The notes under the pieces: model-generated
Told to the model about the DNA's origin: nothing
Seen by the model: the letters and a program-made list of their open reading frames with translations, nothing else
The model's database searches: none
Program-made: the position numbers and the translations under genes
NCBI GenBank assembly: GCA_902782995.1
Contig: CACZPJ010000094.1
Location: 1-56,685 of the forward strand
Source of the DNA: an uncultured Lachnospiraceae bacterium
Lineage (GTDB): Bacteria; Bacillota; Clostridia; Lachnospirales; Lachnospiraceae
DNA: 56,685 bases
Direction of reading: 5' to 3'
Part shown: positions 30,777 to 37,986 of the stretch, one piece after another
How the letters are laid out: each line of letters begins with the position of its first letter
How positions within the stretch are numbered: the first letter of the stretch is position 1

Positions 30777-30931
30777 TTATCAAAAACCTCCTGTGTATGT
30801 ACTTTGTAATTCAATTTCGTTCCTATTCTACCATAAAGATAGGGCGGTTTCAATGTGATTATGCAAGACAATGTATAAAAAGAAATAACATCCAACGGTG
30901 ATGTGGATGCTATCTCAAGAGTAATACTCAA

Positions 30932-33900
30932 TTATTTGTATTCATTTTCTTTCTGTTTCTTTTGCTTAACCACTAAACAAAGCAATCCTGCACCTGAAAT
31001 GCAAAGTACAATAAACCACAAGTCTGCACGACTGGTATCTCCTGTCTGGAGTGTTGCTCCTATCGTTCCTGTACCTGTATGATCCTTCTTATCCTTGTCC
31101 GCTCCGGTTGTACTTCCATTGTTTCCTCCATTTCCACTGACTTGTGCATTCTGTTCCTTTCCATTTTCCGGATTATCTGACGATTTATCTTTCTCTTTCT
31201 TAAAATCATCCGGCTCACTCTTTGCAACCGTAAAGGTTGTACCAGCCGTACCATCTGACCATACCATTTCAAATGTATGCTTACCTTCCGAAAGCGTATC
31301 CAGATAATCTGCCTTTAATGTGATAATGGTAGAACCCTCTTTCACTGTATAATTCTTACGATCAAGAGCTTTACCATCGACCCTGACCCCGACAAACTTC
31401 GCAAAATCTCCATTTCCCCGGATAGAAAGGTTTCCATCGGAATCTTTGATCCACTGACTGTCCGCTCCATCTATGATCTTATAGGATGTCTGCTCCGGTT
31501 CCGGCTTTGTTTCTGGTTCCGGTATCGGATCCGGCTCCGGTGCTGGCTCTGGTTCCGGCTTTGGTTCCGGCGTCGGGTCCGGACTGGTAATCTGTTTAAA
31601 AGCTGCTTCGATCGTATGATCTCCCACTACATTTGTGAATGTATAATCTTTTGCAGGTGCTTCTTCCTTACCATCTACTGTCAGTGCAGCAAGCTCATAT
31701 CCCTCGTCTGCCGTAACAGTAAACGTCTGATTCTCTCCTTCCGTTACGGTTACCGTACCATCCGGTGATATGCTGCCACCTGTTCCTGCCGCTGCCCGGA
31801 TCACATATCTGTTCGCCGGGATGCGGATCGTATAATGAAAAGCTGCTACCGGACTATCTGCCAATCCATCTCTTACTGCGATTGCCTGAATCGTTGTATC
31901 AACGCTTTGACCTGCAATCCCCTCTACGGCAATCGGTTCCGTATACCTGACCGTATTTGCAGCCGGCTTTCCATCTATCACTTCTGGGATTGTGCCGTCC
32001 GTTGTATAGTAAATGACTGCATCCGCTGTCGACGAAGAAAGCGAGATCCGCTGGTTTTCTGCATAGATACCTGCTGCCGGATTCGCAGCCGGAACTCCTG
32101 TGATGTCAGCTGCCTGAACTATGACATTGATCGTAACCTCTAACGGAAGCTGATCTGTATTGGCAACTTCCTCCGGCAAGGTTATGGTGCCTTTTACCGT
32201 AAAGTTCTGTTCTGTCCGGACATCCGGATCATAGCTTCCGCTGACCAGATCCGTAAGATTCCAGTTTACTTCCGCAGTTGTAATATGTTCTGACTCTGTT
32301 TCGATCGTAACCGTCTTTGGCAACCCAAGTGCTTCGGCCGTCCTTTCGGTACCGTTTGCAACACCGGATACCGACTGTGGTGCTGTAACCGCAATGAGCT
32401 TTGCCTGATTCGATGCATAGGAATTCGCAGCTATTAACGTTCCATCTGCATCTAATGCCTTCTCTTCTACACTACCATCATTGATACGTACATCGGTATC
32501 ATACGTCAGATAATATCCCATCTTCGGTGTCAGTATCATGTGTGCCTTATAGCACCATGGATAATAATTGGCATTCCCCCGGATCGGATTGTTCATCGTG
32601 TCTGTCCAGGCTAAGGCTGCATGTGCAATTCCCTTTGTCTGACAGTCTGCCTCGGTACGCAGTGCCTGCTCTCCCTGCGGCAGATAAATGCTGACATCCA
32701 CCTGTGGAATCCTCTGGTTCAGGGTGATCGTGCTTCCCTTCTGGATACCATAATCCTCTAAATCCGCCTGATTGCCCTGTGTATCCGCTTCTGTAAGTAC
32801 CTTGTCTTCAAATACCAGCTGCTGGTCTGCGGCAGCAATCCCTGTCTTGTCCGCAATTTCTTCCTTCAATCCAGTGATACTCTGTGCAGGATCATAGTTT
32901 GCATATGCCTGCTTTTGTGTATCTCCATCATAATATGAGACTGTAAGCATCGGCTTTTCGGTTGCATTTACTGCATAAGCAAGACCATCACTGTCTGTTG
33001 CCTCTAACCAGATTCGGCAGAAGGACAGATCTATTGTTTCAAGACTCACATTAAAATCTGAATGTGGATTTATATTTAATTTCTTTAATAATACAGACTT
33101 CATATCTGAAACTGATATGGTCTCTACCCCATCAATTTTCTTACTGTAGTACCAATCTAATCCACTATCATTCCCCTGTACGACCAAAGAAACTGTACCT
33201 GTTGCAGATGGATCTTTTTTTGCAAAAATCAACCCGGTTTCTTTTTCATAAGCAGCATCTCCGATCTTCTTATCTTTTCCGTCAAAACGTAATGTCATGG
33301 CACGTGATACCCATGGTTTTCTCTCACATTCATCTCCCTGACTATGAGCTCTCACCGCTCTTTCCTTCACAGTATCATCAAACATTTTTCCCGTATCTTC
33401 CTGATCTGTTGAGGCAGCATGTGCCGCGGAGGCAAAGAGGACATTTGACAGACTCAGGTTCGCTGCCGGATAAACATCTCCAGTAGAATTTGGAATCTTC
33501 CCTCCCTCACTATCCTGACCGAGTACATGTATATAATAGCTATTTCCCTTAACAAGAATATCACGCAACCAACACATCCGATCTATTTTCATCTCATAGG
33601 TGTAGTTAGATATAGAAAATTTTATATCATCACTATTTCCAACTTTAACCTTGTCACTATGTGACTTATCTGTTTCATCATCGACTGTTGGCAGATACAG
33701 CTTATCTGTGATACTGTACTCTGCTCCATTTTTCCGGTCAATGGTTTTCACCATCGTAGCATTCATCCGCTTCTGCTCTGCCTTTGAAAAATAACTGTCA
33801 TCTTCTGCCAGTGCTCTCAGGCTTGCACGCAGGCTGCTTGCCCCATAGTGATTTGCATATACTTCTATCGAACCTGCCTTGCTTCCATACCCTGTCCCGG

Positions 33901-34300
33901 CTGGATAACTGTATGTCCGGTTATTCGCATCGTTCTGAAACATCCGATCTGACAGGATCGGAGTTGCCGCAAGAATCGCAATATTATCTCCACTGATGCC
34001 GGAATCTCTTCCGAGAATATACCATTTTTCCGGATCTCCATCTTTATCCTTTCCCCAAAGTACCCAGTCAAGCTTATTCTGATCACCTTTCTGATCCGGT
34101 ATATAGTCATTCATCAACTCGTCCTTTGTTGCATAGGCAGTCACTGTGCCTCTATAGCTGTCTGCCGCCTGTACCTTCACATCCTTTGACAGGATCGGAA
34201 CTGCACCCAGTGTCAGTACAGTCGATAATACAAATGCAATGCCCTGCTTCCATCGTTTTCGATTTTTCATAATCATCCTCTTTTCTCCACGCGTTTTCAT
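30932..34300 (-). CDS. Sortase-anchored surface protein: signal peptide, DUF6273-like, ubiquitin-like, Ig-like, Fn3-associated, repeat domain, Pro-Glu linker, X2-like, LQTG anchor
   Basis: Signal ...VKVQAA; WYILG, DKLYLP, WLR; ubiquitin-like segment; IYYTTDG; GSTIITLKADYL; LQTGD + TM + basic tail; true start probably 34270 or 34276. Confidence 0.88.
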   Translation of the reverse strand: MKTRGEKRMIMKNRKRWKQGIAFVLSTVLTLGAVPILSKDVKVQAADSYRGTVTAYATKDELMNDYIPDQKGDQNKLDWVLWGKDKDGDPEKWYILGRDSGISGDNIAILAATPILSDRMFQNDANNRTYSYPAGTGYGSKAGSIEVYANHYGASSLRASLRALAEDDSYFSKAEQKRMNATMVKTIDRKNGAEYSITDKLYLPTVDDETDKSHSDKVKVGNSDDIKFSISNYTYEMKIDRMCWLRDILVKGNSYYIHVLGQDSEGGKIPNSTGDVYPAANLSLSNVLFASAAHAASTDQEDTGKMFDDTVKERAVRAHSQGDECERKPWVSRAMTLRFDGKDKKIGDAAYEKETGLIFAKKDPSATGTVSLVVQGNDSGLDWYYSKKIDGVETISVSDMKSVLLKKLNINPHSDFNVSLETIDLSFCRIWLEATDSDGLAYAVNATEKPMLTVSYYDGDTQKQAYANYDPAQSITGLKEEIADKTGIAAADQQLVFEDKVLTEADTQGNQADLEDYGIQKGSTITLNQRIPQVDVSIYLPQGEQALRTEADCQTKGIAHAALAWTDTMNNPIRGNANYYPWCYKAHMILTPKMGYYLTYDTDVRINDGSVEEKALDADGTLIAANSYASNQAKLIAVTAPQSVSGVANGTERTAEALGLPKTVTIETESEHITTAEVNWNLTDLVSGSYDPDVRTEQNFTVKGTITLPEEVANTDQLPLEVTINVIVQAADITGVPAANPAAGIYAENQRISLSSSTADAVIYYTTDGTIPEVIDGKPAANTVRYTEPIAVEGIAGQSVDTTIQAIAVRDGLADSPVAAFHYTIRIPANRYVIRAAAGTGGSISPDGTVTVTEGENQTFTVTADEGYELAALTVDGKEEAPAKDYTFTNVVGDHTIEAAFKQITSPDPTPEPKPEPEPAPEPDPIPEPETKPEPEQTSYKIIDGADSQWIKDSDGNLSIRGNGDFAKFVGVRVDGKALDRKNYTVKEGSTIITLKADYLDTLSEGKHTFEMVWSDGTAGTTFTVAKSEPDDFKKEKDKSSDNPENGKEQNAQVSGNGGNNGSTTGADKDKKDHTGTGTIGATLQTGDTSRADLWFIVLCISGAGLLCLVVKQKKQKENEYK
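31495..31585 (-). repeat. Pro-Glu low-complexity linker
   Basis: PDPTPEPKPEPEPAPEPDPIPEPETKPEPE. Confidence 0.85.
32711..32950 (-). other. Eukaryote-like ubiquitin domain inside the surface protein
   Basis: YDPAQSITGLKEEIADKTGIAAADQQLVFEDKVL...LEDYGIQKGSTITL versus ubiquitin [34 protein letters not shown]...LSDYNIQKESTLHL. Confidence 0.88.
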
Positions 34301-34302
34301 AC

Positions 34303-34342
34303 AAAAAATGCCTCTTTACAGAGCATTCCTGTAAAAAGGCAT
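34303..34342 (-). terminator. Terminator after the ATPase-nuclease pair
   Basis: ATGCCTCTTTACAG/CTGTAAAAAGGCAT stem followed by a T-tract on the minus strand. Confidence 0.65.
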
Positions 34343-34412
34343 CTTACTCTTCACAAGTAAGTTTAGCAGATTGTGATATGCTTGTCACTGGTTCTTCTGA
34401 TACATGATTCAA

Positions 34413-34841
34413 TTAATCTAAAGTCTCCGACAAACAACCCTCTTTCAACTCCAATCGTCCTGCACACTTTTCTTTGAACTTTCGAAATTTCGAGCTTTGA
34501 ATCTTATGTGTTCTTGCCTTACTACAGACAATCCGATAAAAGAAACTATACTCTTTTAATTCCGGTCTGCACTTTTGTTCTCCGGCTTCTAATTGTCCGA
34601 TAGCTTCATCTATATTTCCACCTTTTAATTCAATCAAATAGGCTTTTTTTCTACTATCATTAATCAGTATATAATCGCAGCATTTCTCTTGCTGAATCAA
34701 TCCACCATCAAGTCTATAATGTCTTAAATCAAATTGCCTCTTCGGATTAGTCGCCCGATGCTCCACCTGTGCACCTTTATCCCTCGAAACGACGATAGCC
34801 TGATTTTTTTCACACAAAGATTTTTCCCGGCTAAGAAGCAT
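34413..34841 (-). CDS. Putative PD-(D/E)xK nuclease-like protein
   Basis: CDYILI...LIELKG...A..QL motif; 1 nt downstream of the ATPase stop. Confidence 0.65.
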   Translation of the reverse strand: MLLSREKSLCEKNQAIVVSRDKGAQVEHRATNPKRQFDLRHYRLDGGLIQQEKCCDYILINDSRKKAYLIELKGGNIDEAIGQLEAGEQKCRPELKEYSFFYRIVCSKARTHKIQSSKFRKFKEKCAGRLELKEGCLSETLD

Positions 34842-34842
34842 C

Positions 34843-36144
34843 CTACTTCACCTCCGCTCCGGCACTATAGTATAAATCGACCATTTTCTCATAATCTGTA
34901 TTGATTGTCTCCGATGCGCCATCAATAATATCATTATTGATAGCTTCAAATTCATCATCCGTACACGAATCCATTTTACCATCCTGTACATAATATGCAG
35001 ACATCTTTTGGAAATCTAGCCATTTTAAAGGATCAATCACTTTACCAAGCTCAGTAAGATCCACTTTTTTTGAAATCCGATTTGCATACAACATATTATT
35101 AATTGTTCCTAAAATATATGGACTATGTGTTGTCAGAAGTATTTTATTGCCGTTGTTCTTAGCCAGCGAAATAAATTCTGTAATCAATTTCTGGGCATTT
35201 GGAAACAGATGTGATTCCGGTTCCTCAATAATAAAATATGATTTTTTATTATTGAGCAAATAGTAAAAGACTACGTTTAAAATCCATACTGCTTCCTGTT
35301 GACCGGAAGAAGCAAAATTGATCTTGACATACCGCTCTTTACCAACCTGCAATCTCTCTTCTCCATCAATATTTCTATATTCACCATGTAAAATCTGTTT
35401 CATTAGTTCAGCACTTTGTTGCAGACATTCTTTATCTATTTTTATATCCGTTAATTCAATCTTATTTTTTATCAGCTCCTGTAGGCTATTGGAAAAAGAA
35501 GGCTTTAATTGCATGATTCGTTCAAGATAGTTTTGTGTACAATAATCCAGACTCCTTTTTTGATCATCATTCATCACACTATACATAAACATTAGTTGGG
35601 AACTGAATAATGTCATCATACTTCTGCCAGCCGGAATATAAATAACTTCTTCACAATTTCCAAAAAACTCATCAATACTTTTCTTTAAATCTCCATTATT
35701 ACATATGTGAGATAATTCTCTCAATTGTAAATCATCATATTTATCAAGGAATTCCCTCAGTTCTTCACTAAATTCAATCCAAATATAATTCGGAGCAATC
35801 GGATCATTTTTTAAACAGATTTTTATATAGATTGAAGTCGTATAATAATATTCCACTGACATATGTTTATCCATACACCATGTAGAGCCAAATGTTTGTA
35901 AAAAGATAGAACGAATTTCCTTTATCAAGCGGTTTTTTGTAGATAATTCCAATGTATCCCCTTCACTAAAAAAACGCTTGTTCACCTGCATGGATATAAG
36001 ATTTTTCATATTCTTAAAGAAAAAAATACTTTTTGCAATTGTGCTTTTTCCGGATGCCTGTGGTCCTGTAAAAACCATAAAATCATTAATTTCCAGGCTG
36101 CAATAATCTATTGGACCCAATTTATTTATTACTATTTTTTCCAT
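34843..36144 (-). CDS. ABC-like AAA ATPase (AAA_15/AAA_21)
   Basis: NKLGPI, GPQASGKST, YIPAGRS, ASSGQQE, IIEEPESHLFP, LTTHSPY. Confidence 0.9.
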   Translation of the reverse strand: MEKIVINKLGPIDYCSLEINDFMVFTGPQASGKSTIAKSIFFFKNMKNLISMQVNKRFFSEGDTLELSTKNRLIKEIRSIFLQTFGSTWCMDKHMSVEYYYTTSIYIKICLKNDPIAPNYIWIEFSEELREFLDKYDDLQLRELSHICNNGDLKKSIDEFFGNCEEVIYIPAGRSMMTLFSSQLMFMYSVMNDDQKRSLDYCTQNYLERIMQLKPSFSNSLQELIKNKIELTDIKIDKECLQQSAELMKQILHGEYRNIDGEERLQVGKERYVKINFASSGQQEAVWILNVVFYYLLNNKKSYFIIEEPESHLFPNAQKLITEFISLAKNNGNKILLTTHSPYILGTINNMLYANRISKKVDLTELGKVIDPLKWLDFQKMSAYYVQDGKMDSCTDDEFEAINNDIIDGASETINTDYEKMVDLYYSAGAEVK

Positions 36145-36318
36145 AGTTCAACACCTCCAACACCTTGTTGTCTATTTCGTTCTATATTGAACCATTCTCT
36201 TTGCCATTTTATCATTGATATATTGGCAAATCAACACTGTTTTCTCTTGCACTCTGATCTCATATATACTATAGTGTAGACAATCTTTTTTACATATACT
36301 TTCATAGGGAGGGATTTT

Positions 36319-36537: not shown

Positions 36538-37903
36538 TCTGTGCTTTTTGATATGCATGTGCCTTTTTTACAAAGTTTTTGGCAAATGCCGGATTTGACG
36601 GATAGTACAGATGCGGAAATCCCAGCCAGTAAGCATCCTTACTTAAGATACACGGATAGGATCTTCCGGTCACCGGCTTGGTTGCAATGCAATCGCTTCC
36701 GTTATCACTGCTGTCAAAATAATGGAATTCATGTGCTCTTATCTTCGTATGCTCCGGCAAAAAGTTACTGCACTTCTCCTCCAGTTCAATATAACCGAAC
36801 CGCACCAGTCTGCCCATGTCCTGACAGGTTCCGTTTAAAACCCCGGCCATCTCATATGCCTGATTCTTCTGATCGTTTAAAACCGTATGCAGATATAGAA
36901 AACCACCACACTCTGCTACTGTCGGCATACCATCTTCAAATGCTTCCCGGACTGCCTTTCGCATGGAATGATTCCTGCTTAACTCTTCCACATACAGTTC
37001 CGGATAACCACCACCAAGCAGAATGCCATCACAGTCTTTCGGCAGACTTTTCTCATGAAGCGGAGAAAAATACTGTAAAACTGCACCATATTCTTCTAAC
37101 AGCCGCAGGTTGTCTTCATAGTAAAAACAGAAAGCTTCATCCATGGCGACTGCAATCTTACAGGGATATTTTTCTCTGACCTGTTCCTGCTCCTTTCGGA
37201 TACCGCTTCCATCCTCTGCTTCTGCTGCAATTGCAAGTATGACATCCATATCAATAGTCTCACGCAGTCTTCCTGCCAGTTCCGTGATCTGTTCCTGGAT
37301 TCCATCCAGTTCATCCGGCATAACAAGTCCCAGATGTCTGCTTTCTAATCTGCAGTCTTTCTGCTCCGGAAAATAGCCTGCTACACGTACCGGAAGTTCT
37401 CTTTCCAACAATGGCTTTAGTATCTCATAATATCCCTTTGACATCCGGTTAAGCACAATGCCCCTGATCAGATGATCCGTATCATACTGTAGAAATCCTG
37501 CGATCAGTGCCAGCACGGATTTGCCCATCCCCTTTGCATCCACTACCAGTATAATTGGTGTCTGCGTAACCTTTGCCAGATGATAGGAAGATCCCTGCTC
37601 ATAGATACCGCCTAAGCCATCGTATAATCCCATCACACCTTCAAGCACCGCAAAATCTCCCGGCTGTCTTCCGGAAAAAAAGAGCTGTCTTGTCATTTCC
37701 TCATCCGTAAAAAAGGTATCCAGATTCTTCGATGAAACTTTCAGAACCTTCTTATGAAACATCGGATCTATATAATCCGGCCCACATTTATAGGAATACA
37801 CCGGCTTTCCCATATCTTTTAAGATCTGCAGCATTGCACAGGTAATCATCGTCTTGCCACTGCCGCTTTTCGGTGCGGCTATCATAAACCGGTTTATTTT
37901 CAT
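36527..37903 (-). CDS. cbiA: Cobyrinate a,c-diamide synthase
   Basis: SGSGKT, KCGPDYIDP, EGVMGLYDG, LESRHLGL, GGGYPE, AECGG, HEFHY. Confidence 0.95.
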   Translation of the reverse strand: MKINRFMIAAPKSGSGKTMITCAMLQILKDMGKPVYSYKCGPDYIDPMFHKKVLKVSSKNLDTFFTDEEMTRQLFFSGRQPGDFAVLEGVMGLYDGLGGIYEQGSSYHLAKVTQTPIILVVDAKGMGKSVLALIAGFLQYDTDHLIRGIVLNRMSKGYYEILKPLLERELPVRVAGYFPEQKDCRLESRHLGLVMPDELDGIQEQITELAGRLRETIDMDVILAIAAEAEDGSGIRKEQEQVREKYPCKIAVAMDEAFCFYYEDNLRLLEEYGAVLQYFSPLHEKSLPKDCDGILLGGGYPELYVEELSRNHSMRKAVREAFEDGMPTVAECGGFLYLHTVLNDQKNQAYEMAGVLNGTCQDMGRLVRFGYIELEEKCSNFLPEHTKIRAHEFHYFDSSDNGSDCIATKPVTGRSYPCILSKDAYWLGFPHLYYPSNPAFAKNFVKKAHAYQKAQIKE

Positions 37904-37986
37904 CTTATCTCCATTCCTGCGCTGCCTTTTGCGCATATCACTTGCGTGTGAAAAATCTATTTTTTCACACTAGCTCAAAGAACCTT

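Follow-up and report, generated by a model that had tools for sequence, protein, structure and literature searches.

Internal, eroded ubiquitin domain in a predicted anchored surface protein of an uncultured gut Lachnospiraceae bacterium

P0001 contains an internal ubiquitin domain

The window analyzed here is a 56,685-nucleotide stretch from an uncultured Lachnospiraceae bacterium of the bovine gut (GenBank assembly GCA_902782995.1, contig CACZPJ010000094.1). Its reverse strand carries the open reading frame (ORF) P0001 (30932..34300, -), which encodes a multidomain surface protein of 1122 aa that is predicted to be exported and anchored at its C terminus; the start codon is likely M9 or M11. 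Residues 451 to 530 (32711..32950, -) had been singled out in an earlier note, made from the sequence alone, as a eukaryote-like ubiquitin domain. This divergent domain lies inside the protein, between a head region assigned to the DUF6273 family via homologs and a run of Ig/Fn3-like domains.

The segment is a genuine PF00240-family domain. Its Pfam match scores 42.3 bits (E 6.5e-11; cut-off, 25.4), and structure prediction gave the ubiquitin beta-grasp fold, with ubiquitin as the closest structures and sequences; the profile and structure checks proposed in the earlier note both came out in its favor. Of 322 matches in a PDB sequence search, the best 60 comprised ubiquitin, its variants, and ubiquitin D, the sole exception being a designed protein with no relation to them (E 2e-6). 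No Pfam match to the ThiS/MoaD, YukD/EsaB, or Bil-type families was found in P0001 at E<=1, and none of them was among the 50 VIA rows listed. Ubiquitin ranks first by profile and by fold, a ranking that involved no direct alignment to members of those families. Neither outcome that the note had named as speaking against its proposal was seen: a missing profile match or fold, or grouping with ordinary bacterial beta-grasp families. A word-index search with the domain alone, a method too insensitive for the purpose, recovered only the domain itself among 98 candidates.

Aligned with an animal-type ubiquitin unit from a polyubiquitin (P0209), the domain shows 22 identities over the 48 positions 17 to 50 and 56 to 69, exactly the count first reported, and 26/72 (36%) over its whole length. 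Equivalents of K27, K33, K48, and K63, the DYxIQKxST motif, the replacement of I44 by V, and a 6-residue insertion before L56 (32762..32779, -) are all present as described. The reported "QQxLxF" strand held in part: it reads D-Q-Q-L-V-F, in which Q41 alone aligns in register and a Q stands in place of R42. Positions 73 to 76 are IPQV instead of an LRLRGG tail, and the 80-aa domain contains no Cys. With its internal position and no GG, the domain cannot be conjugated, as had been claimed. The E2 family (PF00179) was not found in the genome, which is 84% complete and in which the control was also silent.

Eukaryotic contamination and chimeric assembly were considered and ruled out, given a single ORF with clostridial flanks, a GC content of 0.46 versus 0.447 for the genome, the same junction in homologs, and an independent contig. 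Since this 5447-bp contig, from another DNA run, covers 32490 to 34500 with 1 difference, the domain junction is not an artifact of one assembly.

P0001 has the organization of an anchored surface protein

A predicted Sec signal peptide (34166..34276, -), read by eye from the sequence, has a basic n-region, a hydrophobic core, and a V-Q-A cleavage site after residue 45. The head (residues 46 to 448; 32957..34165, -) was assigned via homologs. It has 1227 of them, and PF19789 (DUF6273) is found on 59 of the 119 non-self matches listed (hand count). P0132, which is 43% identical to P0001 overall, matches PF19789 at 27.5 bits, and the Atlas groups the P0001 head with DUF6273 clusters at 0.93. A model of residues 46 to 635 built without an alignment had a pLDDT of 33 and did not confirm the head fold, and PDB sequence searches with the head and with two downstream domains returned nothing useful. 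No Pfam match to M64 peptidase was found in P0001.

The ubiquitin domain is followed by an unnamed domain of ~100 aa, likely Ig-like (32405..32710, -), that also lies directly C-terminal of ubiquitin in P0177, P0139, P0132, P0126, P0213, and P0010; a PDB sequence search with it gave no match below E 0.8. Next come a Big_4-like Ig domain (32111..32404, -; weak Pfam match, E 0.016, below cut-off), a CHB_HEX_C_1/Fn3_assoc domain (31832..32080, -; 50.4 and 42.2 bits), a Flg_new_2 domain, or divergent InlB B-repeat (31589..31807, -; 29.6 bits), a Pro-Glu repeat linker (31487..31594, -), and a CBM_X2-like Ig domain (31241..31441, -; 26.1 bits versus a cut-off of 28.9). The predicted sorting signal (30935..31054, -) consists of TLQTGD (residues 1083 to 1088), a hydrophobic stretch (residues 1094 to 1111), and a basic tail. 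Cell-wall anchoring by sortase is likely because three other ORFs of the genome have xxTGD-type tails (5 matches in 2156 frames, one being a likely transporter), two PF04203 sortase matches exceed the cut-off, and the homolog P0132 carries an SPKTG sorting motif.

RNA runs X19 and X20 give identical contigs and count as one dataset; coverage is patchy, at a depth of 3 to 5 over the P0001 gene and its neighbors, where DNA carry-over is possible and expression is not shown. A promoter and terminator scan at the gene was uninformative.

The domain is a single inserted module in a gene that occupies a variable slot

Both flanks of the domain were matched in 89 of the 120 homologs listed. Between the flanks, 87 of these have 0 to 8 residues, whereas P0001 has 82 and P0010 has 76, and a local profile scan of the same homologs found a ubiquitin domain only in P0001 and P0010. 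The domain is inserted as a single module between the DUF6273-family head and the Ig/Fn3-like run, and homologs lacking it, which the earlier note had proposed to look for, are the rule.

The gene itself lies in a variable slot of 5.4 kb (30868..36244, unstranded) together with a 142-aa ORF and a low-GC AAA ATPase gene. In G403, the closest congener (93 to 96% identical in the slot flanks), ~42 bp stand in place of the slot. Neither att-like nor terminal repeats were found at the slot ends. The domain region was matched in only 1 of 13 congeners, namely G403, on a different contig and at 65 to 70% DNA identity; it was not found with the P0001 query in the other 12. The G403 copy of the surface gene (L254; G403:C6:6832-10191) is broken by a deletion with a frameshift that runs through the ubiquitin domain, of which only the C-terminal third is retained, and by a later stop. 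This breakage may be real rather than a single assembly error, given a matching 230-aa fragment, P0147.

The other two genes of the slot form a unit (34413..36144, -): a 433-aa AAA ATPase (GC 0.32; AriA/PD-T4-4_A-like in PADLOC, E 1e-27), followed by the 142-aa ORF, which matches no family and has a D...ELK segment resembling by eye a PD-(D/E)xK nuclease motif. Together they are a candidate anti-phage system. Beyond the slot, a short element at about 37880 to 37975 in the window is repeated at no fewer than 17 places in G403 and is likely an interspersed repeat.

Bacteria of many phyla encode exported ubiquitin-headed proteins

Scanning 185,579 species genomes for a motif gave 123 loci, with ~980 stretches estimated from 8/64 parts; after two duplicate loci and two loci without an in-frame motif were set aside, 121 ORFs were kept. 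In 87 of these a hydrophobic leader immediately precedes ubiquitin; 9 are polyubiquitin ORFs on small contigs and likely represent contamination, 16 are either free or truncated, and 9 are other. The residue before ubiquitin Met1 was A, G, or S in 84/85 scored leaders. The C-terminal parts, scanned in 52 proteins, include autotransporter barrels, SLH domains, T9SS tails, dockerins, LPxTG-like tails, and Ig/Fn3 repeats, and by record title the hosts belong to Pseudomonadota, Bacteroidota, Planctomycetota, Verrucomicrobiota, Cyanobacteria, Bacillota, Synergistota, and Actinomycetota. This sample suggests that several hundred species-representative genomes encode exported surface proteins headed by ubiquitin.

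The exported domains (n = 102) have a median identity of 78% to the eukaryote-type unit, and GG is kept in 4. The GC content at third codon positions (GC3) of the ubiquitin domain tracks that of the rest of its own ORF (rho 0.91; 46 ORFs), and in 12 hand-picked pairs with 57 to 66 of 70 residues identical, only 3 to 12 of 14 to 19 four-fold sites are shared. Because GC3 follows the host ORF and four-fold sites have diverged despite conserved residues, these genes are resident in bacteria and constrained. That ~80% identity is kept while synonymous sites are saturated indicates that something selects for exported ubiquitin.

HMM samples, each counting the source genome, gave 5/401 above cut-off in the family, 3/400 in the class, 5/401 in the phylum (two of them spurious), and 7/301 among relatives, the last overlapping the family sample. 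Weak PF00240 genome matches (L006, L007, L261, L262, L289, and L290) were not counted as family members.

Graded intermediates point to a probable bacterial source for the P0001 domain

In a profile search of 1.84 billion representatives, the best 150 of 2150 matches were mostly multi-repeat ubiquitin proteins. The same 150 included graded forms, P0177, P0139, P0132, P0213, and P0126, that have the domain downstream of ubiquitin in common. P0177 has a signal peptide and then ubiquitin (60/72 identical), P0139 has two ubiquitin copies, and P0132 has a DUF6273 head followed by internal ubiquitin. The second ubiquitin copy of P0126 shares with P0001 a YYDG hairpin and a 6-residue insertion of the same length and place. 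A further lineage of internal copies comprises P0010 and four metagenome loci. Eight positions distinguish a gut subfamily from eukaryote-type ubiquitin; at these, 13 gut states and 5 eukaryote states are found across five sister internal domains. In a tree of 75 rows and 80 columns, made by a quick method only and without BfUbb, NEDD8, or ThiS/MoaD, the only grouping resolved was that of the P0001 domain with the second domain of P0126 and with P0010 (SH-aLRT 95; long branches).

Architecture and relatives suggest that the P0001 copy likely descends from bacterial N-terminal copies, though this is not proven. The earlier note had raised possible acquisition from a eukaryote. An ultimate origin of eukaryotic type stands, and the immediate source was likely other gut bacteria rather than a eukaryote, a choice that the tree cannot make.

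The surfaces that eukaryotic partners read have eroded

The Ile44 patch, on which eukaryotic ubiquitin readers chiefly rely and which we take to be L8, R42, I44, H68, and V70, retains 0/5 identical residues in the P0001 domain: there is no Leu8, and the replacements are R42Q, I44V (conservative), H68T, and V70N, with A46E and G47D nearby. The first hairpin has no Leu, although the alignment there was unstable between two runs, and the Ile36 patch, the F4 side, and the tail are altered as well. Sister domains have likewise lost the GG tail and the Ile44 patch, Arg42 included. Across seven divergent domains (six internal, one N-terminal), the core is kept in 6 to 7, R42, Q49, and V70 in 0/7, L8, I44, K48, and H68 in 1/7, and Q62 in 3/7; the single K48 is that of P0001. 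In the near-canonical family, conservation is 0.70 for the Ile44 patch, 0.90 for the core, and 0.80 for other surface that is invariant in eukaryotes, positions fixed by the search pattern being excluded (permutation p 0.04, a weak value since the sequences are not independent). The P0001 domain is 31 to 46% identical to its relatives, versus 37 to 55% for the adjoining C-terminal domain; it diverges no slower than its Ig-like neighbors.

Comparison with known systems

The closest known system is BfUbb, a free 76-aa toxin of Bacteroides fragilis that is 63% identical to human ubiquitin, according to the portions consulted of PMC3352274, PMC6194340, PMC11467351, and PMC11901371. Both are eukaryote-type ubiquitin sequences of gut bacteria, exported by a signal peptide and lacking a C-terminal GG. 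In contrast to BfUbb, the P0001 domain is 36% identical, has no Cys, and is internal to a predicted anchored protein of 1122 aa in a Gram-positive host. BfUbb needs an intramolecular disulfide to bind its periplasmic PPIase (PMC11901371, in part), so a BfUbb-like antibacterial role is unlikely for a tethered domain without Cys. The P0001 domain is neither a conjugable ubiquitin nor a BfUbb-type toxin. From eukaryotic PF00240 proteins it differs in having no GG, a lost Ile44 patch, a 6-residue insertion, and a predicted extracellular location, and from the exported N-terminal family, in which Met1 directly follows the signal peptide, in being a derived internal form. ThiS/MoaD, YukD/EsaB, and Bil-type anti-phage Ubls have the beta-grasp fold in common with it; they are cytoplasmic, however, and most of them are conjugated or small.

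In the parts of the sources consulted, DUF6273 is reported as C-type-lectin-like and as a target of diversity-generating retroelements (DGR) (PMC10743442, PMC11792537), and it heads the IgA protease ThomasA, with little effect on catalysis there (PMC12402451). Tentaclins, DGR targets, and ThomasA carry a DUF6273-family head on an Ig/Fn3 stalk, as P0001 probably does, and ThomasA also has a signal peptide and a sortase-type motif. P0001 differs from ThomasA in having no M64 peptidase match and from all of them in the ubiquitin domain between head and stalk.

In the consulted parts of PMC6194340 and PMC3352274, B. fragilis is presented as the sole bacterium known to have ubiquitin of eukaryotic type. 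Searches of the open literature, at the level of listings and the opening lines of abstracts and with portions of PMC3417536, 10.1101/2025.07.29.667580, and PMC12663171, turned up no account of anchored surface proteins of bacteria that contain ubiquitin domains. The PF00240 family and exported BfUbb were known; what this window adds is an internal, eroded form in a predicted anchored bacterial surface protein.

A stalk spacer, a binding module, a mimic, or a passenger

We lean toward the explanation that the P0001 domain is an eroded member of the exported ubiquitin family that now likely serves as a stalk spacer. In bacteria, a eukaryote-type ubiquitin would have become joined to a preceding signal peptide, and the fusion would have spread across phyla. 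In gut clostridia, a cassette of ubiquitin plus the next domain would then have been duplicated and shuffled behind DUF6273 heads (P0177, P0139, P0132, P0126, and P0001), and, once internal, the ubiquitin domain would have kept its core and shed its eukaryote-facing surfaces. P0001 is presumably exported by Sec and anchored via the TGD motif and transmembrane tail, with ubiquitin as the first stalk element holding out a C-type-lectin-like head that likely does the binding. Several points weigh against this account. The P0001 copy holds 0/8 diagnostic states of either type, and the tree leaves 50/72 inner branches open, with long-branch warnings, and does not settle the origin of the domain, so that descent from the gut subfamily rests on its relatives. 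P0001 itself has no direct PF19789 match in profile scans. TLQTGD lacks the proline of LPxTG, so that of the "sortase-anchored surface protein" originally described, predicted surface display stands and the sortase step is only likely. D58 and K63, kept in 7/7 divergent domains, may point to a binding face that has been retained; the pattern by which the domains were cut out contained both residues, but no domain was dropped. Divergence equal to that of the stalk domains may also be compatible with binding a variable partner, and the domain stayed open and foldable across several lineages.

A rival explanation is a repurposed binding module with a new, non-eukaryotic specificity, whether for a glycan, a phage, another microbe, or the DUF6273 head of the same protein, in the way that BfUbb came to bind a bacterial PPIase. 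BfUbb is a precedent for ubiquitin redirected by bacteria to bacterial targets (PMC11901371 and PMC11467351, in part), the 56-66 segment is kept in the 7/7 divergent domains along with D58 and K63, and the insertion and YYDG hairpin are common to P0001 and P0126. The 56-66 segment is presumably mostly structural, however, Q62 is poorly kept, conservation does not exceed that of the stalk domains, and the domain is tethered and has no Cys; we regard this module as unlikely. A working mimic, read by ubiquitin receptors, deubiquitinases, or antibodies that belong to the host or to grazing ciliates, is quite improbable. The resemblance to ubiquitin itself, the four lysine equivalents, the bovine gut habitat, the strong constraint on N-terminal relatives, and the cross-reaction of BfUbb with anti-ubiquitin sera (PMC3352274 and PMC6194340, in part) would suit it. 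The mimicry proposed in the earlier note nevertheless does not hold up well for this copy: it is weakened by the low overall identity, by the loss of the Ile44 patch, Arg42, and GG, by alteration of the Ile36 patch, F4 side, and tail, by a K48 private to P0001, and by divergence equal to that of the Ig-like neighbors, and the internal position leaves no free Met1. It is very unlikely that the domain is a neutral passenger on its way out, brought by domain shuffling, tolerated since it can fold, and lost where deletion is harmless. Its absence from nearly all homologs and from searches of 12 congeners, and the loss of most of it in G403, would fit; yet six distinct proteins still carry internal copies, at 31 to 46% identity and with an intact core, and the damage in G403 affects the entire gene rather than the ubiquitin domain alone and could be an assembly error.

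P0001 stands at the far end of a graded series, from near-canonical N-terminal through duplicated and internal to eroded and broken copies, in which a highly conserved eukaryotic protein has become an ordinary bacterial surface module. The series is a ready panel for finding which ubiquitin surface matters and what binds it. A broader proposal, which we consider doubtful, is that bacteria of many phyla display C-terminally anchored ubiquitin, its free Met1/Lys63 face outward, as a pre-attached tag or decoy for eukaryotes such as grazing protists and gut hosts, and that the internal clostridial copies, with Lys63 and Asp58 kept and the Ile44 patch discarded, are a second-generation binding module derived from that captured eukaryotic protein.

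Variant architectures

At three loci on long bacterial contigs (L192:6638-7063 and L203:6698-7063, both Dyella records, and L190), the ORF consists of a signal peptide and one full ubiquitin and stops at LRLRGG (LRLRGE in L190). The product would be a free, exported ubiquitin whose conjugation tail is intact apart from the L190 ending. In L154 (5743-7299, -), a signal peptide and ubiquitin are fused to a GH18 glycosyl hydrolase. Adjoining pairs of ubiquitin-headed paralogs occur in four genomes (L130, L175, L216/L217, and L259/L263). L004, L191, L287, and P0140 carry ubiquitin at the mature N terminus of proteins with DUF6273-type domains, so that ubiquitin occurs together with DUF6273 in two distinct arrangements. 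In two genomes of 1.4 to 1.7 Mb from the same order as the source (G886 and G897), the paralogous proteins at L264 to L269 contain a single divergent ubiquitin-like domain or two of them, lack a signal peptide, and have a transmembrane segment at the C terminus, another architecture that is reminiscent of symbiont effectors. The source genome also encodes a separate 516-aa protein with two direct DUF6273 matches (G000:C126:15260-16378).
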